NCBI GenBank assembly: GCA_031398365.1
Contig: JANNND010000012.1
Coordinates: 1 to 56,834, forward strand
Direction: 5' to 3'
From: Blastocatellia bacterium
GTDB taxonomy: Bacteria; Acidobacteriota; Blastocatellia; RBC074
Length of the DNA stretch: 56,834 nt
Shown: piece by piece, positions 3,541 through 53,436 of the stretch
Layout of the letters: each line of letters opens with the position of its first letter
Numbering within the stretch: position 1 is the first letter of the stretch
Made by a program: the position numbers and the translations under genes
Notes under the pieces: generated by a model
Databases searched by the model: none
Seen by the model: only the letters and a program-made list of their open reading frames with translations
What the model was told of the DNA's origin: nothing

Positions 3541-4722
3541 TTAGGGGCCGTTTTTGTTGGTCTCTGTGCCATAGCAGCGCGGCACACGCGCCGAAATATT
3601 GCAGGCGATTTCATAGGAAATGGTGCCAATTTGGGCGGCTAAATCCTCGGCGGAAATACGCAAGCCTTTCTGCTTGCCCAATAAAATCACTTCGTCACCA
3701 AGTTCGACAGCGCCCACATCCGTCACATCCAAAATCGTCAAATCCATACTGATTCTGCCCACGATGGGGGCCAGATGGCCGCGCACGATCACCCCTCCAT
3801 TGTTGGAATGCGCGCGCTGGAAGCCATCAGCGTAGCCAATCGGGATAGTAGCAATGCGGCTGTCGCGTGTGGTGGTGAAGGTTCGCCCATAACCCAATGT
3901 CGTTCCGGGAGGAACCATCTTCAGATGGATAATACGCGAATGCAATGACAGCACCGGCTTGACCGCAAAGGCTTCCGGTTCAGACGCAATTACGTCGCGT
4001 GTGAAGCCATACATTGCCGCGCCAGCGCGGGCAAGATTTCCCCAAGCGGTCGGATGTGCATGGATGCCTGCGCTATTTGCCAGGTGTTTCCACGTGGGCG
4101 CAAATCCGGCTTCGCTTACGATGCGCAACGCTTCGTGAAAGCGTTCAATTTGTAAATTGGTGAACGCGTGATCCGACGCTTCAGCTTCGGCAAAATGCGT
4201 CAGCATCCCGTCCAGTTTAAGGTTGGGAAATTTTCGGAGCGCGCGCACAAAGGCTGATAGTTCTGCCAGGGGAATGCCAAGCCGGCCCATCCCGGTATCT
4301 ACTTTAAGGTGATAATCCACAATGCGCTGCGCTTGTGCGGCTTGCTCATGCAATTCTTCTGCTGCGTCCAACCGAAATAACACTGGCGTCAGATCTTGCC
4401 TGACAACCGCCTCTGCTTGTCCATGCCAAAAACCACCGAGACACAAAATCGGGCGTGTGATGCCAGCCTCTCGTAACTCCATTCCCTCTTCAACTAACGC
4501 AACGCCAAACCAGTCGCAGTAAGGTTCAAGCGCACGCGCGCATTCGACCGCACCGTGTCCGTAGGCATTGGCTTTGACGACCGCCATCAGTTGCGTCTGA
4601 GGCGGCAGCAGGCGTTTGATCAGGTTGTAGTTATGGGTGAGGTTGGGCAGCGAGATTTCAGCCCAGGTGGGACGCGCGGAGCGGGGAGTCGCGATTGGAG
4701 ATGGGAGGTTGGACATCACCAT
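3541..4722 (-). CDS. alr: Alanine racemase
   Basis: PLP-lysine motif [11 protein letters not shown] and full-length alr-like architecture. Its start ATG overlaps the dnaB stop (TAATG at 4720-4724). Confidence 0.9.
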
Positions 4723-7358
4723 TACTCTCGATATTTGTCTTCAAAGCGTGTGAGTTGTTTGAGGAAAACCAATTCAACATCGCCAATCGGCCCATTGCGC
4801 TGTTTGCCAATGATGATTTCCGCGACATTCTGTTTTTCAGTTTCGGGGTTGTAGACTTCGTCGCGGTAAATAAACATCACGATGTCGGCGTCTTGCTCAA
4901 TTGAATTATGGACTATAAACTCTTGTGAAATAAAGTTTTGCCGCTTCGGAACGGTCAAGTCAAAAACCTCTTCTTCTCTGTCCATCTCAATCGAAACGAT
5001 TTCGTCCCAGTAAATATCGCTTGCAGCTAAACACCGTAATGGTTCCGATTGAATCGTTTCCGCAATTCTAATTGCACGTTCGCGACTCACATTTTGACTG
5101 AAAAGATTGACTCCCGTGAGTCCACCATTTAGCCGCCGCAACATTTGTCGTGGCGATATGTTGGGTTGATTCAAAACCGGGCGGACATAAATTTCCCAGA
5201 AATCTCTTGGAATAACATCGCGATTTGTTTTCGCCAAGCGGGGGCGTAAGTATTCTTTGATTTGATTCAGGCTATCCGTTTTATATTTGCCTACCGCGCC
5301 AATTAAATTAGCAAAACGTTCTACGTCTCCTTTACCAGTGATTGAAACATGAAATTGGTCTCGCCCTTTTCCATTTTGCGACCTTCTTCTAAGCCAGGCA
5401 TTGATTCCGAGTCGTAGCAACAGCGCTTGTACATCTCTGGCCAGTTGCTCACTGCTCGACGCATAATAAACCGCAATTGGATAAAACCCTGGCTTCATCC
5501 GAATGCAGCCGTCCGTTGCCCACAAGTGCCTTAAAAACGTGGCAATTGCGTTTGCTGGTTGCATAAAGACTTTTTGCGGCACGCGCTTCTCATGCGAGCG
5601 CAAACCCCAAACGCCCAAATCCATCAACCATTCGGTCACAGCGCTGCGTACATTGTGTGTGTGATGACGATTGGAAGATAAGTAGACCTGATACCAGCTT
5701 CGCTCCTGTTTGACGCGCGGTGTGATTTCAGCACCGAAGACATCCACTGCCAGATTGGCAACCGTCTCCGCCAAATCATGTTCATTGGTTGTGTACTGAA
5801 TCGCGTGGCGCGGCAACGTACAACCATCGCCAATCAGATGCCCCAGCAACGCGAGTTCAGCGTTTGTCATAGTTTGTGTTGTGGGGCTGGAGACTTGGCG
5901 AGGTAAGGCCAAGCGTACTCCGATTTGCAACTCGTCTAACCGCTGCCAGCCGAGAAAGGTTCTGAACTTATGATTCGCCGTCGCGCGAATTGTGCGCCCC
6001 AGTTTCGTCGTCAATTTGAAGACGGACTTGACGCCAGTCGAAAAAGCATTGCTCACCAGGGCGCGTTCGACTTGCATGGTTTCTTCATTCAAAGCCCACA
6101 CTGCAAAGCCTGCTTGACCCACTAAATCTTTGATTGGCACGCGCTCGCCTGTATCTGCTAACGTCACCAAACTCTCGCCCGCCAAGCATCCCGATTCACG
6201 CAAGTCTGAAAGCATAGGTCGGTGATCAGAACGGGACTCAACCGCGCGGGAAAGCTGGGACAGGGCGATGACGGGGATATTCATTTCCTTCGCAATAGCT
6301 TTCAGGTCACGGGAAATTTGCGAGACTTCCTGTTGGCGCGATTCGGTGCGTCCCTTCCCACTCATGAGTTGCAGATAGTCCACAATAATCATGTCCAACC
6401 CGCGCTGTTCATTTTTGAGGCGGCGAATCTTGGCGCGCATTTCGAGCGAAGAAATCGCGGGCGTATCGTCAAGAAAAATTTGCGCTTCCGCCAATTCGCT
6501 GACGCCCATTGCCAGATGCCGCCAATCTTCTTTGCTGAGCATTCCGGTGCGCAAGCGATGCGCGTCAATGCGGGCTTGCGCACAAAGCATGCGCTGCACA
6601 AGCTGTTCCTTGCTCATTTCCAGCGAGAAGATGCCGACAATCGCTTTGCTGCCGTGATGTTGCTGTTTCATCGCCGCGTTCTGCGCGATATTAAGGCAGA
6701 ACGCGGTTTTGCCCATTGACGGTCTGGCAGCAATGATAATCAGATCACCGCGCTGCAACCCGGAGGTCATGTAATCCAGATCGCGGAAGCCAGTCGAAAT
6801 GCCAGTGACCAGTTGTTCGCGTCCGGCAATTTCTTCGATGTGTTGGAGTTGTTTGTGTGCGACTTCGCTGATGGGCACGAAGCCCTGGCGAATGCGGTCT
6901 TCGGCGATGGAGAGAATCGCGCGCTCGGCTTCGTCCAGCAATACGTCGGGTTCATCCTCGGCGTCGAAGCAGCGATTCATGATCTGATTCGACGTCGTGA
7001 TGAGCTTGCGCGTGATGGATTTGCCTTTGACGATGTGGCAGTACTCAAAGATGTTCGAGAAGCGCGGAACCCCATCAATTAACGCTCCGATGAATGCTGC
7101 GCCGCCGATCAAATCCAGATCGCCAGCTTGCTTAAGCGAATCCTGCAAGGTGATCGGGTCAATGGCGCGGCCCTGCTCCATCAGATAGAGCATTTTGTCG
7201 TAGATGCGGCGATGCGAGTCGAGGAAAAAATCATCGCGCCGCAGCATTTCGGCAGCCTGATTGATGGTTTGATTGTCGAGCAAAATTGCGCCGAGGATTG
7301 AGCGCTCGGCTTCGATGTTACTCGGTAAAGCTCTATCAAATGGGGAATCCTTCGCCAT
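4722..7358 (-). CDS. dnaB: Replicative DNA helicase DnaB, interrupted by an intein
   Basis: N-terminus [15 protein letters not shown]. Walker [12 protein letters not shown]. The exteins ...LSDLRESG / [16 protein letters not shown] rejoin into a canonical DnaB. I prefer the ATG at 7358 over the GTG at 7400. Confidence 0.92.
4905..6188 (-). mobile_element. DnaB intein (428 aa) with a LAGLIDADG homing-endonuclease insert
   Basis: Starts Cys405 ([22 protein letters not shown]) and ends ...EFIVHN, followed by Ser. Two LAGLIDADG-like blocks are present ([21 protein letters not shown]). The insertion point and block sequences match the Synechocystis DnaB intein as I recall it. Confidence 0.9.
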
Positions 7359-7427
7359 GTGGTTTTCGGGAGTAGGTGGCGTTGCGCCACAGCGTTTCAC
7401 AGCTTACAACGCAGAAAATAAGCTGCG

Positions 7428-7730
7428 CTAATCAGCGTCAATCTGCGGCTCAGCCGTTTTGTCTTTCAGTTTTTCGCCAGCGGTTTGCTGGTCGTCGGTT
7501 TGTCCGGTCATCTTATCTTTCTGGTATTCGATAGCGGCCTTGGCTTGCGGACGGAAGGCGATTTGATCGAAGGCCATCATGCCGCTGCTGATAAGTCCCG
7601 GCTCTTCTTTTGCGCGTTGTTTGTACTCTTCGTCCGTCATTTTTGCGCGTTTGCCCTGTTCGGCCAGCAACGACCAGAACATCAACACGACTAAGCCAAT
7701 TGCTGCTAGCCAAATGATTGCGTCGGTCAT
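7428..7730 (-). CDS. Small membrane-anchored hypothetical protein
   Basis: The ATG at 7730 is preceded by AGGAG. One TM segment (IIWLAAIGLVVLMFWSLL) and a charged C-terminus. The longer ORF start at 7781 would read through a terminator hairpin. Confidence 0.5.
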   Translation of the reverse strand: MTDAIIWLAAIGLVVLMFWSLLAEQGKRAKMTDEEYKQRAKEEPGLISSGMMAFDQIAFRPQAKAAIEYQKDKMTGQTDDQQTAGEKLKDKTAEPQIDAD

Positions 7731-7758
7731 TTTATTGCTCCTGAAAGGTGGGCCAAAG

Positions 7759-7802
7759 AAGAAAGCGGAGCTTGAACTCATACGCTCTCGCTCCGCTTTC
7801 TT
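7759..7802 (-). terminator. Hairpin terminator after rplI
   Basis: 13-bp perfect inverted repeat aagaaagcggagc / gctccgctttctt with an 18-nt loop. T-rich 3' side on the minus strand. Confidence 0.5.
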
Positions 7803-7834
7803 TATCTCAAAGACTGCCGGATTTGTACAGGCTT

Positions 7835-8293
7835 TTAGGCTTCTTCTTTTTTGACCACAACCTTGAGGTTCGCTGTTACCTCACGATGTAACTTGACCGG
7901 AATTTCAAATTCGCCTACTTCCTTGATTGGTTCGGCCAATTGAATTTTTCGACGATCAATCTCGAAACCTTTTCCTGCAATCGCTTCGGCAATATCCATC
8001 GAAGTCACTGAGCCATACAGCACGCCGTGTTCTCCGACCTTACGCGCGAATTCCAGCGAGAGGGATTGCAATAAGGCTGCTTGACCTTCTGCCGAGGATT
8101 TGTCGGCTGCCGCTTTTTTCAGCAAGGTTTCGCGCTGCTTGCTGATCGCTTTGACATTGGCGGCGGTTGCCTGCACTGCCAGTTTGCGCGGCAATAAAAA
8201 ATTGCGGCCATAACCAGGGCGCACTTTGACGAGTTCGCCGCGCAGCCCCAGAAATTCTACATCTTCACGTAACAAAAGCTCCATTTGTGCCAT
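7835..8293 (-). CDS. rplI: 50S ribosomal protein L9
   Basis: LLREDVEFLGLRGELVKVRPGYGRNFLLPRKLAV is the L9 N-domain signature. Position after rpsR fits. Confidence 0.92.
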   Translation of the reverse strand: MAQMELLLREDVEFLGLRGELVKVRPGYGRNFLLPRKLAVQATAANVKAISKQRETLLKKAAADKSSAEGQAALLQSLSLEFARKVGEHGVLYGSVTSMDIAEAIAGKGFEIDRRKIQLAEPIKEVGEFEIPVKLHREVTANLKVVVKKEEA

Positions 8294-8311
8294 AACAATA
8301 ACTCCTTCACT

Positions 8312-8602
8312 TTAGGCTTGAACGTAAGGCAATAAGGCAATCGTCCGCGCGCGTTTGATTGCTTCTGCGATTTTGCGCTGCTGCAACGCGCTGACACCCG
8401 ACAAACGGGCCGGCAAAATCTTGCCGTTTTCGGTCAGGAAGGATTGCAGCAATTTCACGTCCTTGTAATCAATATAATCAATTTTCTCGGCGGACAACTT
8501 GGATGAACGGCGACGGCGGCTGGAGGGCATGGGCGCATTCATCGGCCTTCTGGGTCCGTCATTGCGATCATTGCGATCATTTCTCTCATTTGGTCTTGGC
8601 AT
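8312..8602 (-). CDS. rpsR: 30S ribosomal protein S18
   Basis: [58 protein letters not shown] upstream. Confidence 0.92.
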
Positions 8603-8659
8603 AATTATCTCCTCAAAAAATCGTGCATCGAAGGCGGACTGACTTTGGCAGCCGACCGC

Positions 8660-9070
8660 TTACGAATCGAATTCGTCGCCTCCATCGTCATCATCATCAT
8701 CGGCTTCGCTATCCGCACCAGTGGCGGAAGCGGCCTTCACCGAGACGCGCCGCTTGGCTTTGAGTTTAGCCGCGCGTTTGATGTCTTCATCAGTGCGCAC
8801 TGTCATATGGCGAATGACCAAGTCATTCACGCGCAAGCGGCGTTCGACTTCGGCAATCTCTTTGCCACTGCCTTCAATGTACAAAACGACGTAGACGCCT
8901 TCTTCATATTTGCCAATTTTGTAGGCAAGTTTTTTGCGTCCCCAGTTGTCGGTTTTGGTGATGGTGCCGCCCAGATCGGTGACGACTTTATCCAGTTGGG
9001 AATTTAGTTTGGTGAGATCATCTTCGGTCGTGTTCGGTGCCGTGATGAAAACAATTTCGTAGGTTCTCAA
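8660..9070 (-). CDS. rpsF: 30S ribosomal protein S6 (start re-set to TTG at 9070)
   Basis: (M)RTYEIVFI... is the S6 N-terminus. A perfect SD AAGGAGG lies 7 nt upstream of TTG 9070-9068, so the track start at 9121 adds 17 unlikely residues. Acidic C-terminal tail DSEADDDDDDGGDEFDS. Confidence 0.88.
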   Translation of the reverse strand: MRTYEIVFITAPNTTEDDLTKLNSQLDKVVTDLGGTITKTDNWGRKKLAYKIGKYEEGVYVVLYIEGSGKEIAEVERRLRVNDLVIRHMTVRTDEDIKRAAKLKAKRRVSVKAASATGADSEADDDDDDGGDEFDS

Positions 9071-9145
9071 GAGAAATCCTCCTTGTGGATTTTGGTAAGC
9101 CCAAAGCAATTGTTTGAGCAAGGAGAAAGCCAGGTTAACTGACTT

Positions 9146-9703
9146 CTAGTTATATTTTGACATCGCCTCGGCAATGCCATCTTGCAAAAGAGCTTCGACT
9201 GCATCAGCAGCCTTCAGTATCACTTCATTCAATGTTTCGCGTTCGCTTTTACTAAACTCGCCTAACACGAAATCAGAAAGATTACGGATTAGATGATCGG
9301 GTGCGATGCCGATGCGCAAGCGCGCAAAGCTTTGCGTCCCGATTTCCTTGATGACGGATTTTAAGCCATTTTGCCCACCAGCGCTGCCATCTCGGCGAAT
9401 GCGTAGTTGACCCAGCGGCAAAGCCACATCATCACTAATTATCAAAATGCTCTCGGCCTTGATCTCATATTTCTTCATCAAGGCTGCAACTGCTACGCCG
9501 CTTAAATTCATGAACGTTTGCGGCTTGGTAAGTAAGGCTTCGACCGTCCCCACCTTGGCTTTCGTCGTCACTGACTGAGCTTCCGGCGTTCTCACTGCGC
9601 GTCCCGCGCGGCGCGCTAATTCGTCAATTACGAAAAAACCGCAGTTATGGCGCGTGCGCTCGTATTTGTCGCCCGGATTGCCTAAGCCAACGATCAAGAA
9701 CAT
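9146..9703 (-). CDS. pth: Peptidyl-tRNA hydrolase
   Basis: MFLIVGLGNPGDKYERTRHNCGF signature. The pth-ctc-prs neighbourhood fits. Confidence 0.92.
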   Translation of the reverse strand: MFLIVGLGNPGDKYERTRHNCGFFVIDELARRAGRAVRTPEAQSVTTKAKVGTVEALLTKPQTFMNLSGVAVAALMKKYEIKAESILIISDDVALPLGQLRIRRDGSAGGQNGLKSVIKEIGTQSFARLRIGIAPDHLIRNLSDFVLGEFSKSERETLNEVILKAADAVEALLQDGIAEAMSKYN

Positions 9704-9710
9704 AGCTCAA

Positions 9711-9803
9711 AGTCTATTGAGTCCGTAGGGCCTGTAGAGTCTTGAGAGTCTGAATTTCCAATGACTCATACAGACTTTATAGACTCTATGGACTTTACAG
9801 ACT
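9711..9803. repeat. Imperfect hairpin whose arms are tandem 9-mers (AGTCYNTWG x about 4.5 versus the complement x about 3.5)
   Basis: Arm 1 is agtctattg/agtccgtag/ggcctgtag/agtcttgag/agtctg. The reverse complement of arm 2 is agtctgtaa/agtccatag/agtctataa/agtctg. It fills the ctc-pth intergenic gap. Confidence 0.7.
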
Positions 9804-13293: not shown

Positions 13294-14079
13294 GTGACAA
13301 CGCTTTATAAATATCCACGCACACAACACATCGAAGGCTCGCGTTTGCAGCCCGGTGACGAGGACTTGGAGTCGGTCTCATTTAATCAAATCAAAGGCCG
13401 TTTTATTGTCATCGAGGAAAAGTTGGATGGCGCAAATTCTGGCATCAGCTTTAGCGCAGATGGAAGATTATTATTGCAAAGTCGCGGGCATTTTTTGGAT
13501 GGAGGCCCACGGGAAAAACAATTTGCGTTATTGAAAACCTGGGCCAGCACACACCAACAAAACCTGCAAGCTTTGTTAGGTGACAAGTATTTAATGTATG
13601 GCGAATGGCTCCATGCCAAGCACACGATTTTTAATGATGCTTTGCCACATTATTTTTTTGAGTTCGACATTTTGGATGTTAGCAAAGGCGAGTTTTTATC
13701 TACGGACAGAAGACATTCAATGTTAACGGGTTCACCAGTGGTTTCAGTGCCTGTGTTGTGGCAGGGCCGCGCAAAGTCATTGGAACAGCTTCAATCATTG
13801 GTGGCCCAGTCTTTGTACAAAAGCCAACAATGGTATGAAAACTTAGCCGTAGCCTGTGCTGAGCAAAAACAAAAATTTGAGATCGTAAAAAAGCAGTCTG
13901 ATAAGACCGCTCTGGCGGAAGGGCTTTACATCAAAGTTGAAGAGCAGGGGCGCGTGGTTGAACGTTATAAGTTTGTGCGCGCTGAATTTTTACAAGCCGT
14001 CTTTGATTCTGGTAGCCATTGGATGGATCGGCCTATTTTGGCAAACTGTCTGCGGGCTGACTGCGATATGTTTGCATGA
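13294..14079 (+). CDS. ATP-dependent RNA ligase family protein (nucleotidyltransferase-only)
   Basis: GTG start. N-terminus YPRTQHIEGS. Motif I EEK43LDGAN (KxDG). Later blocks LMYGEWL, FFEFDI and EGLYIKVE resemble ligase motifs III, IV and V. Confidence 0.75.
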   Translation: MTTLYKYPRTQHIEGSRLQPGDEDLESVSFNQIKGRFIVIEEKLDGANSGISFSADGRLLLQSRGHFLDGGPREKQFALLKTWASTHQQNLQALLGDKYLMYGEWLHAKHTIFNDALPHYFFEFDILDVSKGEFLSTDRRHSMLTGSPVVSVPVLWQGRAKSLEQLQSLVAQSLYKSQQWYENLAVACAEQKQKFEIVKKQSDKTALAEGLYIKVEEQGRVVERYKFVRAEFLQAVFDSGSHWMDRPILANCLRADCDMFA

Positions 14080-15188
14080 ATTTTCCTTACCTTCCACAAC
14101 CACCACATTATCACTTTGAGTGGGATTCGCTGCACGGCGAATTTGCCTGGGTGCGTGCGCTGCAAGGTTGCCCGCAAGACCCTATTCATCACGCGGAAGG
14201 CGATGTTTGGATTCACACCAAAATGGTTTGCGAAGCTGTTGTTGCAAATCAGGCTTGGCGCGCTTTAGCCGAGCCGGAACGCGCCATCGTGTTTGTGGCA
14301 GCACTAATGCACGATGTGGCCAAGCCTGTTTGCACGCGCCGGGAAGACGGTCGTATCACCAGTCGCGGGCATTCCAAGCGCGGCGAGATTATGGCGCGTG
14401 AGATTTTGTGGCAGATGGAAATCCCGCTACTGTGGCGCGAGCAAATTGTGAATTTGATCCGCTATCATCAAATTCCCTTTTTCCTGATTGAACGTCCAGA
14501 CGCGCAACGCAAGCTTTTTGAAGTCAGCCAAACAACCCGCAATGATTTGTTGGCGCAGGTAACTGAAGCCGATGCGCGTGGGCGAATTTGTGTTGATCAG
14601 CAAATGCTCTTCGACAATATTGCGCTTTTTACTGTTTTTGCCGAGGAGCAGCATTGTTTGAGAGTACCGCGAGCATTTCCGAGCGAACACAGCCGCTTTT
14701 TATATTTCCAAAAAGAAGACCGCGATCCAAATTACCTGGCATTTGATGATACGGGCAGTGAGGTGATCGTGATGTCCGGGTTGCCGGGGGCTGGCAAAGA
14801 TCATTGGATCAAAACGCAAGGTCCCGATTGGCCGGTAATTTCGCTGGATGCCTTGCGCGCAGAAATGAAGATCAAACCAACGGATAACCAAGGCGTAGTG
14901 ATTGCGCGTGCGCGCGACCTGGCCCGCGAACAGTTGCGGCGCAAACAGAATTTTATTTGGAATGCGACGAATTTAAGCCGTCAAATGCGGGAACGTTGTT
15001 TGAGCTTATGCGCTGCTTATAACGCAAGGATTCGGATTGTTTACCTGGAAACTTCAGAAAAGAATCTATGGGTACAAAACAAAGAGCGACATGCCAGCGT
15101 GCCAATATCCGTAATTCATAAATTGCTTTCGCGGTGGGAAGTACCCGATCTAACAGAAGCGCATGAAGTGCAATTAATTTGCACCTAA
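14076..15188 (+). CDS. HD phosphoesterase / P-loop polynucleotide-kinase fusion (HD-Pnk-like end-healing enzyme)
   Basis: N-terminal HD domain (HHAEGDVWIHT ... LMHDVAKP ... SRGHSKRGE). C-terminal P-loop VIVMSGLPGAGKDHW. The ATGA start/stop overlaps the ligase gene. Confidence 0.7.
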   Translation: MNFPYLPQPPHYHFEWDSLHGEFAWVRALQGCPQDPIHHAEGDVWIHTKMVCEAVVANQAWRALAEPERAIVFVAALMHDVAKPVCTRREDGRITSRGHSKRGEIMAREILWQMEIPLLWREQIVNLIRYHQIPFFLIERPDAQRKLFEVSQTTRNDLLAQVTEADARGRICVDQQMLFDNIALFTVFAEEQHCLRVPRAFPSEHSRFLYFQKEDRDPNYLAFDDTGSEVIVMSGLPGAGKDHWIKTQGPDWPVISLDALRAEMKIKPTDNQGVVIARARDLAREQLRRKQNFIWNATNLSRQMRERCLSLCAAYNARIRIVYLETSEKNLWVQNKERHASVPISVIHKLLSRWEVPDLTEAHEVQLICT

Positions 15189-19651: not shown

Positions 19652-19694
19652 GTGACTGGTAAGGGCTGCTGCCTTTTCTCCATTACCCCTTACC
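19652..19694. repeat. Short heptad-armed inverted repeat (GTAAGGG-type) filling the nadE-pgsA gap
   Basis: Units gtgactg gtaaggg ... ccattac cccttac. Perfect 8-bp IR ggtaaggg/cccttacc. It abuts the nadE stop codon. Confidence 0.55.
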
Positions 19695-21427
19695 TATCCG
19701 CGATACACATTCGTAATCGGCATGCGGCGATCCCGGCCAAAGGCGCGCGTTGTGACCTTAATGCCCGGCGCGGCTTGCCGCCGTTTGTATTCGTTGATGT
19801 CGACTGTGCGTACGACCCAGCGCACGGTTTCTGCGTCGTGGCCTTCAGCAATCATCGCATCAATGCTCATATCCTGCTCAACGTACATTTCCAGAATTGC
19901 GTCCAGAACTTCATAGGGCGGCAGCGAATCCTGATCCTTTTGGTCTTCGCGCAATTCGGCGGAAGGCGGGCGCGTAATAATATAATCAGGGATGATTTCC
20001 TGCTCACCGCGACGATTGACGTATTGGCAAAGTTCGTACACCAATAACTTCGGCACGTCTTTGATGACCGTCAAGCCGCCGCACATATCACCATACAGCG
20101 TGCAATAACCAACACTGGATTCGCTCTTGTTGCCAGTAGATAAAACCAGTGCGCCAAATTTATTCGACAGCGCCATCAGAATATTCCCGCGAATGCGCGC
20201 CTGAATATTTTCCTCCGCCACGCCCATCGCTGTGCCTGCAAAAACGGGCTTGAGCATTTCCAGATACTGCTTGAAGGTGTCCTCAATGGCAATGACGTCG
20301 TAAGGCACGCCCAGGTTTCGCGCTAAAGCCTCGGCATCGCGCGCACTTTCATCGGACGAATAACGCGTGGGCATAAATACGCACCGCACCTTGTCAGCAC
20401 CGAGCGCGTCCGCCGCGATACAGGCGACAAGCGCGGAATCTACGCCGCCTGATAAGCCAATCACGACGCGCTCGAAGCCATTTTTGCGCACATAATCACG
20501 CGTACCAAGGACGAGCGCTTTGTAAACCTCTTCGACTTTGGGGAGGCACGGCGCGATGACAGCGGGTATTTTTTCGCGCGATTTAGGTTCGTACGCCGCT
20601 GCCAATTCAATCTGTGGAGCGCGTATTTTTTCGCTGGTTAAGAACATCCGATCCTGGCGGCGACGCGGATCGTGCAAGCGTTCGCGGAACACCTTTTCGG
20701 TATTGATGTCTGCCAACAGCAAGTCTTCTTCAAACACTTTGCCGCGTGCAATCAACCGCCCACGTTCATCAAAAATCAAACTCGCCCCATCAAAGACGAG
20801 TTCGTCTTGCCCACCCACCAAATTCACGTAAGCAAGCGCGACAGCATTGTCTTCCGCCCGTGTGGCCAGCATTCGTTCGCGGTCATCACCTTTCGCGGAA
20901 TGATAAGGCGAGGCGGAAATGTTGATAATGATTTGTGCGCCCGCTAAGGCTTGAACTTGCGTTGGGCCGCCGGGATACCAGATGTCTTCACAAATGTTGA
21001 CGCCAATCAACACTTCGCCCAATTGAAACACGGGTGCCGTCTCGCCCGCTTTGAAATAGCGGTAATCATCAAACACGCCGTAATTGGGCAAATAGGTTTT
21101 GTGGTAGACACCCTTGAGTTCGCCGTTGTGAATCACCGCTGCCGCGTTGTGAATGTCCGTCGTTTTGTCCACAAACCCGACGACTGTCGTGATGCCTTGC
21201 GAGGCCGCTACGATTTCGTCAAGCGCTTTCAAATTGGCAGAGATGAATTGCGGTTTCAACAGCAAATCTTCAGGCGGATAGCCTGTGATTGCCAGTTCCG
21301 GCAGCGCGACGATGTCTGCGCCTTGCCCGCGAGCTTGCTCAATAGAGTTGATGATTTGGGCGGTGTTGCCCGCGAAATCGCCCATCTTCGGATTGATTTG
21401 CGCGAGCGCGATACGAATAGTAGTCAT
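19694..21427 (-). CDS. nadE: Glutamine-dependent NAD+ synthetase (nitrilase domain + NadE domain)
   Basis: N-terminal CN-hydrolase (ALPELAITGYPPEDL, ICEDIW) and C-terminal SGGVDSALVA PP-loop. 577 aa. Confidence 0.92.
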   Translation of the reverse strand: MTTIRIALAQINPKMGDFAGNTAQIINSIEQARGQGADIVALPELAITGYPPEDLLLKPQFISANLKALDEIVAASQGITTVVGFVDKTTDIHNAAAVIHNGELKGVYHKTYLPNYGVFDDYRYFKAGETAPVFQLGEVLIGVNICEDIWYPGGPTQVQALAGAQIIINISASPYHSAKGDDRERMLATRAEDNAVALAYVNLVGGQDELVFDGASLIFDERGRLIARGKVFEEDLLLADINTEKVFRERLHDPRRRQDRMFLTSEKIRAPQIELAAAYEPKSREKIPAVIAPCLPKVEEVYKALVLGTRDYVRKNGFERVVIGLSGGVDSALVACIAADALGADKVRCVFMPTRYSSDESARDAEALARNLGVPYDVIAIEDTFKQYLEMLKPVFAGTAMGVAEENIQARIRGNILMALSNKFGALVLSTGNKSESSVGYCTLYGDMCGGLTVIKDVPKLLVYELCQYVNRRGEQEIIPDYIITRPPSAELREDQKDQDSLPPYEVLDAILEMYVEQDMSIDAMIAEGHDAETVRWVVRTVDINEYKRRQAAPGIKVTTRAFGRDRRMPITNVYRG

Positions 21428-21436
21428 AACGAATTC

Positions 21437-22163
21437 TTATCCAGCATTTTGGCGCAACCAGAACTTCAAATCCTCAGCAGCTTGGAAATCCAACAGGTCT
21501 TCGCCGAGCATCGTCAGTTTCGGAATTGGCAACTTCGTGATGGTTTTCTTCTGCGCTGTAGTGACATGGCCCACACGCTTTTCTAATTGCCGCAACGTCA
21601 TTTGAGTAAAGCCTATATGTATTCCTTGCTCTACGCCTTCCTGCCGCCATTCTGAACAAACGGTGCCATAACTTTTTCTCCTCGTTTGGTAAACGCCTGC
21701 TTGATTGAATGCAGGACATCGCCTTTGGTCAGTGTCGCATTAGCTTCTGACGCATACTTCAGCAGCACGCGAATGTATTGTACCGCACTTTGATTTGCCA
21801 CTCTGCCAAAAGCTTCTCAGATGTTCAGCAATTGGGATTCTTCGTGCAAACGATGAATATTTTTCATTATCAACATGGCTGCGCGCACAATTGCCTGCCC
21901 GCGAATTTCCGCATCCTCCAGCGCCGATAAATCGCACAGGTAATACGAAAAATTTGGCGCGTATTATTGCTATTCGAGGAACTCATCTTTTGTAAGATTA
22001 TGACTTCAGGCGAAGCGAGGTCGAGCGAATTGACGATTACGGGCGGAAGATAGTTGCGAACGAAATCAGCGGCAAGTTCAGGCTTGCCAAAAATCTCTTT
22101 GAAAAATTTATCGGTCGGGTTGATGAGTTCTCCGGCTTCGCTTGTTTGAGGCTTTTTCGCCAT
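21437..22163 (-). pseudogene. Decayed Rpn-family (PD-(D/E)XK) recombination-promoting nuclease / putative transposase with a DUF4351-like tail
   Basis: Intact N-terminus MAKKPQTSEAGELINPTDKFFKEIFGKPELAADFVRNYLP. Homology then continues in other frames (..LCDLSALEDAEIRGQAIVRAAMLIMKNI..) with stops. The tail MTLRQLEKRVGHVTTAQKKTITKLPIPKLTMLGEDLLDFQAAEDLKFWL resembles DUF4351. The nuclease core appears to be missing. Confidence 0.65.
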
Positions 22164-22165
22164 AG

Positions 22166-22435
22166 TCAATCAGCGACTTCAACAGAATCAATAATGCCGA
22201 TGATCGCCGCATCTATTGGGCGGTCTTTCATTCCTTCGGCCAGTCGCGCGCTGCTGCCGGACACGACCAAAACCCGCTCCTGCACACCCGCACCGACCGT
22301 GTCTACCGCGACCAAATAATTATTTTCGTCTTCGCCTGTCAACGTGATCGGGCGCACGAGCAATAACTTAGTGCCCAGCAACCGATCATCTTTGCGGGTG
22401 GCGACGACTGTGCCAATAACTCGTCCAATAATCAT
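22166..22435 (-). CDS. Bacterial microcompartment vertex pentamer (BMC-P; EutN/CcmL/PduN family)
   Basis: MIIGRVIGTVVATRKDDRLLGTKLLLVRP ... VDTVGAGVQERVLVVSGSSAR ... DAAIIGIIDSV matches the EutN/CcmL pattern along its full length. Confidence 0.9.
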   Translation of the reverse strand: MIIGRVIGTVVATRKDDRLLGTKLLLVRPITLTGEDENNYLVAVDTVGAGVQERVLVVSGSSARLAEGMKDRPIDAAIIGIIDSVEVAD

Positions 22436-22440
22436 AGAAA

Positions 22441-22561
22441 TTGGTGGTTGGTGGTCGGTGGTCAGTGGTTGGTAGAATCCTGCTTCGCCCCAACTTGTCT
22501 TTGCCAGTTTTTACAGACGCGGCAATCTATACCGACCACCAGTCACCGACGACCGACTACT
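22441..22561. repeat. Heptad-armed inverted repeat (GGTGGTY x5 versus complement x5) between the BMC-H and BMC-P genes
   Basis: 22441-22475 is ttggtgg ttggtgg tcggtgg tcagtgg ttggtag. 22527-22561 is ctatacc gaccacc agtcacc gacgacc gactact. The perfect 11-bp core is tggtggtcggt (22449-22459) / accgaccacca (22531-22541). Confidence 0.8.
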
Positions 22562-22838
22562 ATTTTTTCATCATGACTGGCATCACTTCATCTACCGAAC
22601 CGTGCGGACGTGGGATGACGTGGACGCCGACCAATTCGCCAACGCGACGCGCGGCAGCGGCTCCAGCATCTGTGGCGGCTTTGACCGCCGCGACATCGCC
22701 GCGCACAATTGCGGTTACAAAACCGGCACCGATTTTTTCGTAGCCGACCAGCACGACGTTTGCCGCCTTCACCATCGCGTCTGCGGCTTCAATCGTCGCG
22801 ACCAAGCCTTTTGTTTCAATCATTCCGAGTGCTTCCAT
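22560..22838 (-). CDS. Bacterial microcompartment shell hexamer (BMC-H; PduA/EutM/CcmK family)
   Basis: [59 protein letters not shown] is a near-canonical Pfam00936 single-domain shell protein. Confidence 0.93.
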
Positions 22839-22864
22839 TGCTTCTCCTCATTCAGTTCTAAACT

Positions 22865-23650
22865 TTACTGATTTATCAATCTTGCCGTTTGGGACAATAA
22901 CTCGACCAATTCTTCGCGCGTCAACGTAATGGTTTCTGCCTCGTCGCTTTGCCCCTTCGCCCTGTCGCCCATTCCACAAGCCTGCCCGGTACGCGCTTCA
23001 ATCGGCATTACCCCCGCGCGTTCCCGAATCTCGAAAAGCTTGGGAATCGCGCGCTCTGGAATCGCATTTTCATTGCCGAGACTGCGGGCAATCGCGCTGA
23101 TTTTACAAGTGTGTTCCAGCGTTTCCAGTTTATTGAATGCTTTTTCCAGGGTGTCAGCATACGCGACTGCGCCGTGATTCGCCATCAGCAAGGCGTCGTG
23201 AAATGCTAAAAACGGCTCAATGGCATCCGTCAGTTCACGTGTCGAAGGTGTGCCATAATTGGTCAACGGGACGCAGCCGAGCGTCAATATAACCTCAGAC
23301 AAAATCGCCTTGTCGAGCGAAAGCCCGGCGACCGCAAAGCCCGTTGCATACGGCGGATGACAATGCACAACGGCGTGAATGTCGGCGCGATGTTGGTAAA
23401 TTGTGCGGTGCATGGGCCACTCGGATGACACTTTGTAATCGGAAGGTTCCAGCGCATTGCCGTCCAAATCTACGACAACCATCATCTCCGGTTTCATCCA
23501 ACCTTTGCTGACCGCCGATGGTGTGGCGATGCAGCGATTCGGGCCAACGCGCACACTGATGTTGCCATCACCCGCCACGATGTGACCGCGCTCATAACAA
23601 CGGCGCGCTGTGTCCACAATTTGTTCTTTGATAATTCGTTCGTCCATCAT
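22865..23650 (-). CDS. Class II aldolase/adducin-family protein (FucA-like) with a 45-aa C-terminal extension
   Basis: GDGNISVR, metal-binding HCHPPYATGFA and LMANHGAVAY. The tail ...GQSDEAETITLTREELVELLSQTARLINQ lies beyond the aldolase fold. Confidence 0.85.
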   Translation of the reverse strand: MMDERIIKEQIVDTARRCYERGHIVAGDGNISVRVGPNRCIATPSAVSKGWMKPEMMVVVDLDGNALEPSDYKVSSEWPMHRTIYQHRADIHAVVHCHPPYATGFAVAGLSLDKAILSEVILTLGCVPLTNYGTPSTRELTDAIEPFLAFHDALLMANHGAVAYADTLEKAFNKLETLEHTCKISAIARSLGNENAIPERAIPKLFEIRERAGVMPIEARTGQACGMGDRAKGQSDEAETITLTREELVELLSQTARLINQ

Positions 23651-24360
23651 TTTCCATTGCGCAGCAGGTCGCGAAAATCTGCGCCCATTCCCGTGGAAGT
23701 TTGCCCGGATGAATTTGGTTGCGCGAGAAAGTAGGAAAGGCTTTCGAGCGAGATGGCAAAATCTACGTGCTTGATTTTGACGCCGGGCTTGGGCTGTAGC
23801 CGCACCGGCGCAAAGTTCAGCACCGCTTTAATGCCCGCTGCCGTCACTTCGTCCAGCAACCTTTCCGCTGCGACTGCCGGGACGGCAAACACCACAATCT
23901 CAATGTTTTCACGTTGGATAAAGGCGGACAATTCTCGTGTATTCTGAATGATCAGGCCATCACGCGTTTCTGTTCCAATCTTGCGCGGATCGCTGTCAAA
24001 AATCGCTACCATCCGAAAGCCATTGACGTTGAATCCGCCATACGTCGCCAGCGCGATGCCCAAATTGCCTGCGCCCACAATCGCCACATTGCGCTCAGTA
24101 TTTAAGCCCAGAATTTGCCGCAATTGTTGTCGTAAATCATTGACTGAATAACCGACGCCGCGCACACCGAATTCACCAAAGTAGGCGAGGTCTTTGCGAA
24201 TCTGCGCGGAGTGCAAGGCGAACTGTTCGGCCATCGCTTTCGAGGAAATCCGCTCGACGCCTTCGCTTGCCAACTCCTCCAGGCAGCGCAAGTACAGGGA
24301 AAGCCGACTGGTTGTCAATTCGGAGATTTTCTCGGTTTTCATCTTTGCCATCTTGGGCAC
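23647..24360 (-). CDS. rex: Redox-sensing transcriptional repressor Rex
   Basis: TSRLSLYLRCLEEL..ISSKAMAEQF...IRKDLAYFGEFGVRGVGY winged helix plus a Rossmann domain VAIVGAGNLGIALA. Its stop overlaps the aldolase start (ATGA). Confidence 0.88.
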   Translation of the reverse strand: MPKMAKMKTEKISELTTSRLSLYLRCLEELASEGVERISSKAMAEQFALHSAQIRKDLAYFGEFGVRGVGYSVNDLRQQLRQILGLNTERNVAIVGAGNLGIALATYGGFNVNGFRMVAIFDSDPRKIGTETRDGLIIQNTRELSAFIQRENIEIVVFAVPAVAAERLLDEVTAAGIKAVLNFAPVRLQPKPGVKIKHVDFAISLESLSYFLAQPNSSGQTSTGMGADFRDLLRNGK

Positions 24361-24447
24361 AATCTGGGCCGCAGAGTTGATAGATAACTATTCGATTTCG
24401 CAAGACTTAATTCAACCAGCCGCCACGATAACGCAGCGTCTGCAACC

Positions 24448-24472
24448 GTGTCAATTCACACGAAATTGACAC
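24448..24472. promoter_or_regulatory. Candidate operator: 9-bp perfect palindrome GTGTCAATT-N7-AATTGACAC upstream of rex
   Basis: Perfect inverted repeat about 90 nt upstream of the rex start, in the rex/ruvA divergent region. It is not the canonical Rex box TTGTGAA-N4-TTCACAA. Confidence 0.3.
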
Positions 24473-24654
24473 TGCTTGCGGCTGTCTCGTACACTCCGGC
24501 TTTGCATTGGAAGAATTGAGAACGAGATGTTTTTACCGTAGAGACGCCGAGTCAGCGCCGAGGCTTGCAAAGGTTTTCTAATTACTCTTTGCGAACCGCT
24601 GCGTCCGCTGCGCCTCTACAGTGAAATCTCCTCTCCAACTAAGGAGCAAATGCT

Positions 24655-25266
24655 TTGATCGCTCACCTCTCAGGAACGCTGCTCAGCAAGCAACCGAATT
24701 TAGTGATCGTAGATGTTGGCGGCGTCGGCTATGAAGTCACGATTCCGCTTTCGACTTTTTACGATCTGGGCGAAGAGGCCAGCCCGGTCGCACTGCGCAT
24801 TCACACGCACGTGCGCGAAGACGCCTTGCAACTGTTCGGCTTTCGCACCGAACGCGAGAAGAAATTATTTCTGCAATTGCTCAGCGTCTCCGGCATCGGC
24901 CCAAAATTAGCGATCACGATTTTGTCCGGGATGAGCGCCGACGAATTGATCCCCGCAATTCGCAATAACGAACTCGCGCGGCTGGTGAACATTCCCGGCG
25001 TCGGCAAAAAAACGGCTGAGCGCATGATCGTCGAATTGAAAGACAAATTGTCTGTGCTGTCGTCGCCTGAACTGGAAGAGCAATTCCGCATCGCCGCAGG
25101 CACCGGCAGCACGACCGCGATGGTGGATGACATTATCTCCGCGCTCGTCAATTTAGGCTTCCAACGCGCCGCCGCCGAAAAAGCCGTAAAAGCGACGATG
25201 CAGGAAAACCCCGATGCAAACTTCTCGCAATTGACGAAACTCTCCATGCGAAAATTGGCGCGCTAG
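24655..25266 (+). CDS. ruvA: Holliday junction DNA helicase subunit RuvA
   Basis: TTG start 8 nt after AAGGAG. MIAHLSGTL..., VDVGGVGYEV and HhH motifs GIGPKLA / IPGVGKKTAERM. Confidence 0.92.
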   Translation: MIAHLSGTLLSKQPNLVIVDVGGVGYEVTIPLSTFYDLGEEASPVALRIHTHVREDALQLFGFRTEREKKLFLQLLSVSGIGPKLAITILSGMSADELIPAIRNNELARLVNIPGVGKKTAERMIVELKDKLSVLSSPELEEQFRIAAGTGSTTAMVDDIISALVNLGFQRAAAEKAVKATMQENPDANFSQLTKLSMRKLAR

Positions 25267-25270
25267 ATTT

Positions 25271-26743
25271 ATGGCAGATTACAAATGGAAGCCAATTGAA
25301 GACTTGCCGGAAGACTGGACAAAACTCGCGTCCAGCGAACTCGCAGGTCTGGCTTCCGTCTGGCGCGAGCATTACGAGACGATCAAAGATTCAAAAGCCC
25401 TCAAGCACTTCAACGAACGATTGCGCCGTGAGTGGGCAATTGAAACCGGCATCATCGAAAACCTCTACTACATTGATCGCGGCGTGACTTTGACCTTGAT
25501 CGAAAAAGGCATTGAGGCCAGTCTGATTCCGCACGGTTCGACGGACAGACCCGCCGAATTGATTGTGCCGATTCTGAAAGATCAGGAAGAAGTCGTGACC
25601 GGGCTGTTTGATTTCGTCGGGCAGCAGCGACAACTCTCAACTTCGTACATCAAGCAATTGCATCAAGCCCTGACGCAACATCAACGCACGACCGCCGCGA
25701 AAGACAGTTTCGGGCAAATGATCGAAGTCGAATTGCTGCGCGGCGATTGGAAGAAGCTGCCGAATAATCCGACCAAATCCGATGGCAGCGTTCACGAATA
25801 TTGCCCGCCCGAACAAGTCGCTTCGGAAATGGATCAGTTGATTGCACTTCATCAGGAGCATTTAGAAAAAAACGTTCCGCCCGAAGTCGAAGCCGCGTGG
25901 TTGCATCATCGCTTCACGCAAATTCATCCGTTCCAGGATGGAAACGGACGAATGGCGCGGACATTGGCGTCGTTGATTTTTTTGCGCGCAGGATTGTTCC
26001 CCTTTGTTGTACATAGAGATGAAAGAGATGAGTATCTGGACGTTTTATTGCAAGCCGATTTCGGTGACTTAAAGACTCTCGTGCAGTTTGTTTCTCGCGC
26101 GCAAAAGAAAGCAATCAATCAGGCGATAAATTCAGCCAAAAGCGTTTTGCTTGATGGAGCACCATTAGAAGAAATCATTGCAGCAGCAACAAGTCGTTTG
26201 AAGAAACGCAAAGAAAGTTTTTCTATTGAGCAGAGTATTGCAGAACCACAATTAAAGTTATATGCCATTGCTGAAGCTAAATTGAAAGAAGTCGCATCTC
26301 CATTACACGACCAACTACGGTCAATTGATTTGCTCTATTATTCTAAAGTAACTGAATATTTATCCGAGGGAGATGAAGACGCGGAGGTTGAAATAAATAG
26401 CTCTGCACAATTCATTGCCAAGGAGCTTGGTTATCATGCTAACTTTTCTGGATTTAGTGCATCACTAGCCTTAGAAATCCAAACCGATCAGTCATTCAAG
26501 ATGGCCTTTTCTTTTCATCAATACGGTGACTCTGTAGATAACATAATGGCTGTTTCTGCCTTTATCCCGATAGGATATAGAGTAGAGAACTTGACATTCT
26601 TTCAGGTTCCACCCAAGAGCCTGATAAGCGATGTCTTTCAATTTACAGATAGAGAACCCTTAGACAAGGTTGCTGAGCGGTTTCGTTATTGGTTAGAAGA
26701 TGTCATTTTGAACGGGCTGAATTATTGGCGAGAACAGTTATAA
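25271..26743 (+). CDS. Fic/DOC family protein (class II, N-terminal inhibitory motif) with an unknown C-terminal domain of about 190 aa
   Basis: Fic motif [12 protein letters not shown] (25925-25960). The (S/T)xxxE(G/N) inhibitory motif is TGIIEN (25445-25462). No family was recognised for residues from about 300 to 490. Confidence 0.85.
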
Positions 26744-42962: not shown

Positions 42963-43042
42963 AGGTGACAGGTGCTGGGTGTTAGATACTTGATGTTAGA
43001 GAGAACCTTTGCCCTTAACCTAACACCCAGCACCTGTCATCT
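42963..43042. repeat. Long hairpin (19-bp perfect stem, about 23 bp extended) between the permease and ATPase genes, with a heptad-periodic 5' arm
   Basis: gacaggtgctgggtgttag (42967-42985) pairs with ctaacacccagcacctgtc (43020-38). The arm reads caggtga caggtgc tgggtgt tagatac ttgatgt tagagag. The stem overlaps the permease stop codon. Confidence 0.85.
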
Positions 43043-51119: not shown

Positions 51120-51171
51120 AAAAAGCTGAAGGGCCGAGTGAATTTTAGTTCACTCGGCCCTTCAGCTTTTT
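51120..51171. terminator. Bidirectional rho-independent terminator
   Basis: 18-bp perfect stem gctgaagggccgagtgaa/ttcactcggcccttcagc with loop ttttag, flanked by A5 and T5. Confidence 0.9.
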
Positions 51172-53278: not shown

Positions 53279-53287
53279 TGTAAAATA

Positions 53288-53421
53288 AATCAAAAGGCAA
53301 AAGGCAAATCTCAAACAGTCGCAACTGGCGGCAAAAGGTCGGCACTTCGTTAATTATCAATTCTCAATTGACCATTGATAATTATTTTTGACATTTGCCT
53401 TTTGACATTTGCCCTTTGATT
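53288..53421. repeat. Nested inverted repeats: outer heptad-armed IR (RGCAAAA-type, 3-4 versus 5 units) enclosing an 11-bp perfect AT-rich hairpin
   Basis: Outer arms are aatcaaaaggcaaaaggcaaatctcaaa (53288-53315) and tttgaca tttgcct tttgaca tttgccc tttgatt (53387-53421). The inner hairpin is taattatcaat (53351-61) / attgataatta (53374-84) followed by T5. Confidence 0.8.
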
Positions 53422-53436
53422 TCAGTGTTTCGGTCT

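Follow-up and report, generated by a model that had tools for sequence, protein, structure and literature searches.

A rex-aldolase-hexamer-pentamer module in Blastocatellia as a reduced form of the ACI microcompartment main locus

How few genes can a bacterial microcompartment (BMC) locus hold, and where does such a locus come from? The question is raised by a 56.8 kb stretch of DNA from a Blastocatellia bacterium (contig JANNND010000012.1; the whole stretch is hereafter the window), in which genes for the redox-sensing repressor Rex, a class II aldolase, a shell hexamer (BMC-H) and a shell pentamer (BMC-P) follow one another in a row. An initial annotation had considered a new organizational logic, namely a shell with an aldolase as its only dedicated cargo, as well as truncation of a larger locus by an adjacent Rpn element, and had asked whether an Acidobacteria-specific aldolase-type locus was already catalogued. 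In place of a new logic, we find a relationship with a known system: as judged from its genes and chromosomal site, the locus is a reduced single-pentamer derivative of the main locus of the ACI type of BMC, neither an independent invention nor a canonical member of that type. It lies at the same chromosomal site as the triplet-pentamer version of this locus in Pyrinomonadaceae and its pentamer is an orthologue of one member of that triplet, yet three of the defining features of the ACI type are missing from it; on these grounds we regard it as a reduced derivative.

Calling of open reading frames (ORFs) in the window, combined with Pfam scans, places the four genes on the minus strand between 24360 and 22166. 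The parts of the locus are as follows:

23647..24360, minus strand: rex, encoding a redox-sensing (NADH/NAD+) transcriptional repressor with PF06971 and PF02629 domains
22865..23650, minus strand: class II aldolase, FucA-like and Zn-dependent (PF00596, E=1.4e-48), the signature enzyme, with its catalytic core in residues 1-214
22868..23008, minus strand: C-terminal extension of the aldolase (residues 215-261), made up of a variable linker and a conserved helix ITLTREELVELLSQTARLI, the putative encapsulation peptide (EP)
22560..22838, minus strand: BMC-H, a basal-type shell hexamer (PF00936, E=1.3e-29) with KAAN and PRPH interface motifs
22436..22559, minus strand: intercistronic hairpin between the hexamer and pentamer genes (H-P), whose 5' arm is rich in GGT and whose 3' arm is rich in ACC
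22166..22435, minus strand: BMC-P, the sole shell pentamer (PF03319, E=3e-32), orthologue of pentamer P_a of the ACI triplet

The co-directional order rex, aldolase, BMC-H and BMC-P had been proposed by the initial annotation, and its account of the layout holds throughout: the stop codon of rex overlaps the start codon of the aldolase in an ATGA (23647-23650), 26 nt separate the aldolase from BMC-H, the spacer between BMC-H and BMC-P measures 124 nt (22436-22559), and the flanks are nadE (21427..19694) and ruvA (24655..25266), the latter divergent and upstream of rex. Likewise, its statement that nothing else related to BMCs lies nearby agrees with both tblastn and Pfam searches of the window; tblastn with the four proteins, followed up to E values of 10, detected no second BMC-H or BMC-P in it. 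The families PF00171, PF06130, PF00389 and PF02826 gave no match in Pfam scans of 20 of the larger ORFs of the window, and no aldehyde dehydrogenase (AldDh), phosphotransacylase (PTAC) or cofactor-recycling dehydrogenase was seen among the Pfam-scanned ORFs of the window or the scanned neighbour ORFs of related loci. The four genes constitute a real and probably co-transcribed unit.

The relationship to known compartments becomes apparent on comparison with the ACI type, which is restricted to Acidobacteria, mostly Subdivisions 4 and 6, and counts 125 loci (Sutter et al. 2021, Nat Commun 12:3809; PMC8217296). According to this catalogue, the ACI main locus features a PF00596 aldolase with a C-terminal EP, most similar to the HO/MIC3 aldolases, along with a hydroxyacid dehydrogenase, a triplet of BMC-P genes and at least one BMC-H, as well as a small Cys protein that bears an EP at its N-terminus and conserved cysteines at its C-terminus (PMC8217296). 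An EP-bearing AldDh is consistently located on a satellite locus in most ACI genomes, the pentamers of triplets are almost always adjacent, and the catalogue tree includes Blastocatellia pentamers under the label ACI(main) (PMC8217296). Hence the question whether an Acidobacteria-specific aldolase locus has been catalogued is answered by ACI, which is listed, whereas the form seen in the window, without triplet, hydroxyacid dehydrogenase or Cys protein, departs from the listed description. The window shares with that description an acidobacterial host, a PF00596 aldolase with a C-terminal EP (for which a test of amphipathicity was not significant) and at least one BMC-H with the standard interface motifs KAAN and PRPH.

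We searched a library of representatives at 50% identity with the window aldolase and then used the clades carrying the same C-terminal ITLTRxELxEL helix, which are only 37-50% identical to it, on metagenome contigs. This recovered two architectures with a pentamer triplet. Type I has the order folP-ybbR-glmM-pdxJ-TPR-YHS-aldolase-H-P-P-P-hydroxyacid dehydrogenase, lacks rex and matches the catalogue description. Type II consists of ruvB-ruvA and, divergent from these, rex-aldolase-H-P-P-P-small Cys-rich protein (L092, L163, L165, L158 and L176); the homologues of its pentamer P_b are named Pyrinomonadaceae by their source, and a Pyrinomonadaceae metagenome-assembled genome (MAG) from NCBI (L176) shows the same order with called genes. 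The terminal Type II protein, of about 107-114 residues, combines an N-terminal helix (e.g. LAEKIANLLQ) with a C-terminal ...GKPCDHCSMCSS.GF cysteine motif (L092 11979-12302, L115 4939-5259, L163 12224-12568 and L165 13122-13460) and, by these features, fits the short EP-bearing Cys protein that the catalogue ascribes to ACI. ORFs of about 430-500 residues beside Type I loci were considered as candidates for AldDh and rejected, being peptidases, HhH-GPD proteins or unknowns.

The window exemplifies a third arrangement, here termed Type III, in which ruvB-ruvA and a divergent rex-aldolase-H-P unit occupy the same site as Type II and represent its first four genes. The Pyrinomonadaceae form (Type II; L092, L163, L165, L176) further resembles the window in the class of its host, the ITLTRxEL helix, the basal BMC-H and the lack of an AldDh in the locus; it differs in having P_b, P_c, the Cys protein of about 107 residues and small ORFs around the aldolase, all missing from the window, whereas the long H-P hairpin of the window is rare in triplet loci (3/48). 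The window BMC-P is 63% identical to P_a of L092, as against 40% to P_b and P_c. Type I similarly has BMC-H and a standard pentamer after a PF00596 aldolase that carries an EP, is restricted to Acidobacteria and has its AldDh outside the main locus; it differs from the window in the lack of rex and in the presence of the triplet, a 2-hydroxyacid dehydrogenase and a small YHS/Cys protein, as well as in its neighbourhood. In a midpoint-rooted neighbour-joining tree of the aldolases, 54 single-pentamer loci form the sister group of Type II, three single-pentamer loci fall outside this pair and three more are sister to Type I. The topology of this neighbour-joining tree suggests that reduction to a single pentamer happened more than once.

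The single-pentamer arrangement is widely kept. A scan of species-representative genomes (one genome per species) with an alignment of the aldolase yielded 137 relatives, the best 80 of which were kept, with loci numbered from L001 on, and read over +-10 kb around the module. The order rex-aldolase-H-P is retained in about 70 of these best 80 of 137 relatives, and, wherever the contig reaches, the +-10 kb around the module hold a single H and a single P. Carriers of the single-pentamer module include OY969418.1 (9.5 Mb; module at 7,350,968-7,371,747), CAWCKY010000006.1 (2.9 Mb), CAVUPU010000004.1 (1.15 Mb) and JAXLQP010000003.1 (889 kb). The module is usually flanked by ruvB and ruvA to one side and by nadE with a CDP-alcohol phosphatidyltransferase to the other. 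Divergent relatives, with aldolases 52-55% identical to that of the window (L083, L084), keep rex-aldolase-H-P in another neighbourhood, with frdAB upstream and VWA genes downstream; since the order is thus kept even in a different setting, the four genes travel as a unit. In comparisons with five close relatives, the ratio of nonsynonymous to synonymous substitution rates (dN/dS) is 0.00-0.09 for all four genes and 0.00-0.04 for BMC-H, the product of which is 85-100% identical across relatives and unchanged at dS = 0.27. The four-gene arrangement is therefore no chance juxtaposition and is under strong purifying selection; the conserved order and these ratios together speak for a functional module, as opposed to one in decay. 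The exact BMC-H sequence occurred in the same module context only, and no satellite copy turned up.

Record titles of nearly all of the 80 loci name Blastocatellia, Blastocatellales, Acidobacteria or Acidobacteriota MAGs, and the protein names agree with this. About 15 loci are titled Heliomicrobium, Heliobacteriaceae or Clostridia (L009, L015, L017, L019, L024-L026, L035, L036, L042, L043, L074, L075, L084 and L085); these are probably wrong taxonomic labels, since both the genes and their order agree with Blastocatellia. Some of the single-pentamer loci carry, between aldolase and BMC-H, a small ORF of about 65 residues that is absent from the window, with the motif ...APxxG..SGQvlSVEL.eDEEViWqWTHrPDGtSaVTGYEivKK (e.g. 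L004 10829-11011; also L031, L032, L044, L047, L051, L054-L056, L061 and L080).

The aldolase is the signature enzyme of the module. An exact-sequence look-up with it returned no record. Alignment of 25 homologues shows that E77, H96, H98 and H159 are invariant, and these we take to correspond to the acid/base residue and the Zn ligands of Escherichia coli FucA. Among solved structures, L-fuculose-phosphate aldolases come closest, with roughly 30% identity, and no NCBIfam equivalog reaches its cutoff, leaving substrate specificity unassigned by profile; the enzyme is nevertheless likely to perform aldol cleavage dependent on dihydroxyacetone phosphate (DHAP). In the same 25 homologues, residues 215-242 vary in both length and sequence, whereas residues 243-259 are conserved, with L243, E247, L248, L251 and L252 invariant. 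An AlphaFold2 model has a helix at 245-260 (pLDDT, the per-residue confidence, about 82) after a disordered stretch at 221-240. The ACI aldolase is described as bearing a C-terminal EP (Sutter 2021, PMC8217296), and conservation, position and this description together mark the tail as a putative EP. Searches with tblastn against plasmids found no acidobacterial plasmid record with the aldolase. The same searches picked out Acetoanaerobium noterae NZ_CP154629.1 (H1) and Brevibacillus laterosporus NZ_CP011076.1 (H2), Firmicutes replicons of 2.6 and 1.4 Mb listed as plasmids, in which aldolases align over 99% of the query, tail included, with no gene annotated under the match; these may represent further EP-tagged BMC aldolases.

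The coupling of the locus to a redox sensor, proposed in the initial annotation, proved to be conserved and is maintained even in the alternative neighbourhood of L083 and L084. The rex product scores 255 bits against the NCBIfam Rex model NF003995 (cutoff 126) and has both the N-terminal winged-helix domain (PF06971) and the C-terminal NAD(H)-binding Rossmann domain (PF02629) that define the family, with a GAGNLG Rossmann motif and the canonical recognition helix QIRKDLAYFGEFG. Alignment with relatives indicates that its true start is likely the ATG at 24342, giving 231 residues. A co-directional rex lies upstream in nearly all loci with sequence 5' of the aldolase; it is absent from this position in seven single-pentamer loci (L033, L034, L039, L041, L078, L081 and L082). 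Linkage of rex to the aldolase is a feature of Types II and III, both from class Blastocatellia, and is lacking in Type I; it is specific to that class and seemingly unreported in the 2021 catalogue. In its text, its HMM table and the supplements covered here, the catalogue makes no mention of Rex, PF06971 or PF02629 (PMC8217296), and literature searches for BMCs in Blastocatellia or Rex-linked BMCs gave nothing beyond it.

Two elements upstream of rex bear on its control:

24449..24471, minus strand: palindrome TGTCAATT-N7-AATTGACA, back-to-back sigma-70-like -35 boxes of the divergent rex and ruvA promoters
24383..24404, minus strand: conserved block CTTGCGAAATCGAATAGTTATC in the 5' untranslated region, a candidate degenerate Rex operator with the left half-site TTG(C/T)GAA only

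Rex binds the operator TTGTGAA-N4-TTCACAA, and Rex regulons control genes of fermentation and respiration. The palindrome recurs without a mismatch in 14 close loci, where it lies some 90 to 110 nt ahead of the rex start as given by tblastn or the longest ORF. As a Rex operator it was rejected, because its spacing is variable (N5-N7) and it also occurs in loci without rex; for the same reasons we ascribe it to promoter elements. A promoter scan places the rex promoter at TTGACA (24454-24449), 18 nt, TATCGT (24430-24425), with TTGACA-18-TACACT for ruvA. Of 75 related loci, 9 have a Rex box with at most three mismatches near -31 to -35 relative to the start of rex, compared with 1% of background windows. 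The block CTTGCGAAATCGAATAGTTATC, conserved in an alignment of 11 close relatives, occupies the same position as these near-canonical boxes of other lineages and is accordingly a candidate for a degenerate operator. Autoregulation by Rex is plausible for this family of loci and conjectural for the window itself. The canonical recognition sequence of the winged helix, the Rossmann fold and the near-canonical boxes before rex in some related loci are as in known Rex regulons; the upstream region of the window differs from these in having no canonical operator. In L083, genes for the flavoprotein and Fe-S subunits of fumarate reductase/succinate dehydrogenase (frdAB) stand immediately before rex (6701-9241). 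Genes for this enzyme are a classical kind of Rex target.

The spacer between the two shell genes had been described as structured, and folding confirms a long-range stem with a minimum free energy of -45.6 kcal/mol (z = -3.2; 1 of 200 shuffles is as good). There is no Rfam match in 21400-24700, and the window holds no second copy of the spacer sequence. Relatives have hairpins of quite different sequence at this junction, with arms built of tandem repeats of about 7 nt, such as (CAGTGGT)n paired with (ACCACTG)n in L032 (-69.7 kcal/mol) or the hairpin of L080 (-93.6 kcal/mol). A perfect stem of at least 10 bp is found in 32 of 74 H-P spacers of single-pentamer loci. It is rarer in the aldolase-H spacers, which are of comparable length (7 of 78), in the regions that follow P (7 of 77) and in the H-P spacers of triplet loci (3 of 48), which mostly measure about 20 nt. 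Hairpins also occur in the intergenic regions of the window at 9720-9803, 42963-43042, 51120-51171 and 53287-53422, several of them with short tandem-repeat arms. All these look like members of a genome-wide class of intercistronic or repetitive extragenic palindrome (REP)-like elements that is strongly enriched at the H-P junction. A recurrent, lineage-variable hairpin at a hexamer-pentamer junction appears to have gone unreported so far, and we infer that it lowers or uncouples expression of the pentamer relative to the hexamer.

These features suggest the following scheme. The operon rex-aldolase-BMC-H-(hairpin)-BMC-P would be transcribed from the sigma-70-like promoter 5' of rex, and the co-transcribed Rex, going by what is known of its family, would most likely repress it until NADH/NAD+ rises. 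The FucA-like DHAP-dependent aldolase would serve as the signature enzyme and be directed to the lumen by its conserved C-terminal helix, inside a shell presumably assembled from one basal hexamer and one standard pentamer; the strong hairpin would uncouple the pentamer from the hexamer, few pentamers being needed per shell. The aldehyde released by the aldolase would then be taken up by an AldDh encoded elsewhere, a step adopted from what the catalogue reports for ACI.

Could the small gene content instead be the outcome of damage? One such account starts from the element immediately downstream:

21428..22169, minus strand: Rpn/YhgA-like pseudogene, with PF04754 over residues 17-55 only, lying outside the compartment genes, beginning at the BMC-P stop codon and running to nadE

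Insertion of, or recombination at, this element might have deleted further BMC genes, and its remnant does begin exactly at the BMC-P stop codon. Compared with L001, the window copy retains the N-terminal residues 1-58 and a frame-shifted DUF4351 part. However, the Rpn-free L004, with an aldolase 74% identical to that of the window, ends at BMC-P too; in most of the 80 genomes, L031 included, there is no Rpn, and BMC-P gives way directly to the downstream housekeeping genes. Nor do relatives without Rpn continue into P_b/P_c or AldDh. Furthermore, single-pentamer loci include lineages with aldolases only 52-55% identical, the close relatives L166, L170 and L173 have an intact Rpn gene (338-346 residues, PF04754 and DUF4351) at the same place beside the same four-gene module, and an unrelated insert, a MNT/HepT-type toxin-antitoxin pair (PF18765 and PF20797), takes the Rpn position in L033 (11442-12195) and L039 (7190-7943). 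The truncation put forward in the initial annotation is hence refuted, and the site 3' of BMC-P is, from this comparison, an insertion hot-spot behind a module that was already complete. A related account, in which the four genes are what is left of a disappearing ACI locus and the compartment is no longer made, draws on the gene content being reduced relative to both the Pyrinomonadaceae and the Type I loci; against it stand the low dN/dS of all four genes, the BMC-H protein that is identical across an appreciable synonymous distance, the gene order shared by about 70 species genomes and the invariant EP motif, and we deem it very improbable.

The more serious choice concerns the fate of the aldehyde. 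We consider it probable that the window represents the ACI main-locus module pared down to four genes in a Blastocatellia lineage, with the AldDh encoded elsewhere. Several observations weigh against this. The ACI triplet is not present: the window has a single BMC-P, and P_b and P_c as seeds give no second hit in 85 single-pentamer loci. The 2-hydroxyacid dehydrogenase (PF00389/PF02826) of Type I loci is found neither in the scanned ORFs of the window nor among the conserved neighbours, tblastn reveals no homologue of the small Cys-rich EP protein in the window or the 85 single-pentamer loci, and triplet, dehydrogenase and Cys-rich protein alike are absent within +-10 kb in all 80 related genomes. 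Among the Pfam-scanned neighbours (conserved families and selected ORFs) there is no AldDh within 10 kb, and its distal location is an assumption carried over from the catalogue. No canonical Rex box, i.e. no site with three or fewer mismatches, lies near the window operon; taken as a whole, the AlphaFold2 model of the aldolase is poor (pLDDT 57); the Eisenberg helical hydrophobic moment of the putative EP does not exceed that of shuffles; and the similar hairpins in other intergenic spacers of the window mean that the role of the H-P hairpin may be generic.

Some of these points would be accommodated by a truly minimal compartment, in which one hexamer and one pentamer surround an aldolase as the sole dedicated cargo, no AldDh is encapsulated, and the step of aldol cleavage or condensation might be held apart from the cytosol under redox control by Rex. 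In vitro, a hexamer together with a pentamer is enough to form closed shells. None of the 60-odd loci with sufficient flanking sequence has the two extra pentamers or the Cys-rich EP protein, and, as triplet pentamers are almost always adjacent, the pentamers not found beside P_a have seemingly been lost instead of relocated; the contigs of the top 120 P_b homologues have no length in common with the contigs of single-pentamer modules, which speaks weakly in the same direction. The movement of the module as a unit into other neighbourhoods (L083, L084) and the purifying selection on all four genes are likewise as expected for such a compartment. On the other hand, it is hard to see what would be gained from a shell in which an aldehyde is set free and nothing consumes it, and the EP-bearing AldDh lies on a satellite locus in most ACI genomes (PMC8217296). 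It is because the catalogue places the ACI AldDh consistently on such a locus that we favour partners encoded elsewhere over a shell holding the aldolase only, which we regard as possible but doubtful. The fullest version of the latter, a self-sufficient minimal ACI organelle with no encapsulated AldDh anywhere in the genome, switched by Rex and with its hexamer:pentamer ratio set by the hairpin, seems to us unlikely.

Two other systems offer instructive parallels to the reduced ACI module. The PVM and PVM-like fucose-rhamnose metabolosomes of Planctomycetes and Verrucomicrobia also have an EP-bearing class II aldolase as signature enzyme, together with a standard pentamer and hexamers, and by analogy with them the chemistry here is likely the conversion of a ketose-1-phosphate to DHAP and an aldehyde. 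PVM loci unite AldDh, PTAC, acetate kinase, lactaldehyde reductase and a pentamer triplet, none of which is in the window. PVM loci are not known to carry Rex. The HO type I satellite locus, with an aldolase and two BMC-P genes (PMC8217296), resembles the window in that an aldolase gene and pentamer genes form a small module of their own; it differs in being the satellite of a large main locus with AldDh, BMC-T and hexamer, whereas the window module carries its own hexamer and regulator.

ACI is one of the larger new BMC types, occurs in very abundant soil bacteria and has no assigned function. Its single-pentamer variant defines the smallest gene set kept by selection, i.e. an EP-bearing aldolase, one H and one P; the rex gene ties the locus to an NADH/NAD+ signal and suggests when the organelle is made. 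The aldolase, H and P genes form a three-gene construct for expression of shell and cargo, and the recurring H-P hairpin is a testable candidate for setting shell stoichiometry. Should the self-sufficient minimal organelle be real, no smaller natural BMC filled with enzyme would be known, nor any earlier one that lacks an aldehyde-consuming core, and complete genomes devoid of a distal AldDh would challenge the aldehyde-dehydrogenase-core model of metabolosomes.

Other features of the window lie apart from the module. A Fic/DOC-domain gene of 490 residues (25271-26743, plus strand) is inserted between ruvA and ruvB, which are directly adjacent in relatives such as L001; its family was found in only 6 of 85 related loci. 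The gene for the replicative helicase DnaB (4722-7400, minus strand) is split by an intein with a LAGLIDADG homing-endonuclease domain (PF14890 and PF14528). Finally, an RNA ligase (PF09414) gene adjoins a gene with HD and kinase-like AAA_33 domains (13294-15188, plus strand), and this pair looks like an RNA repair cassette.

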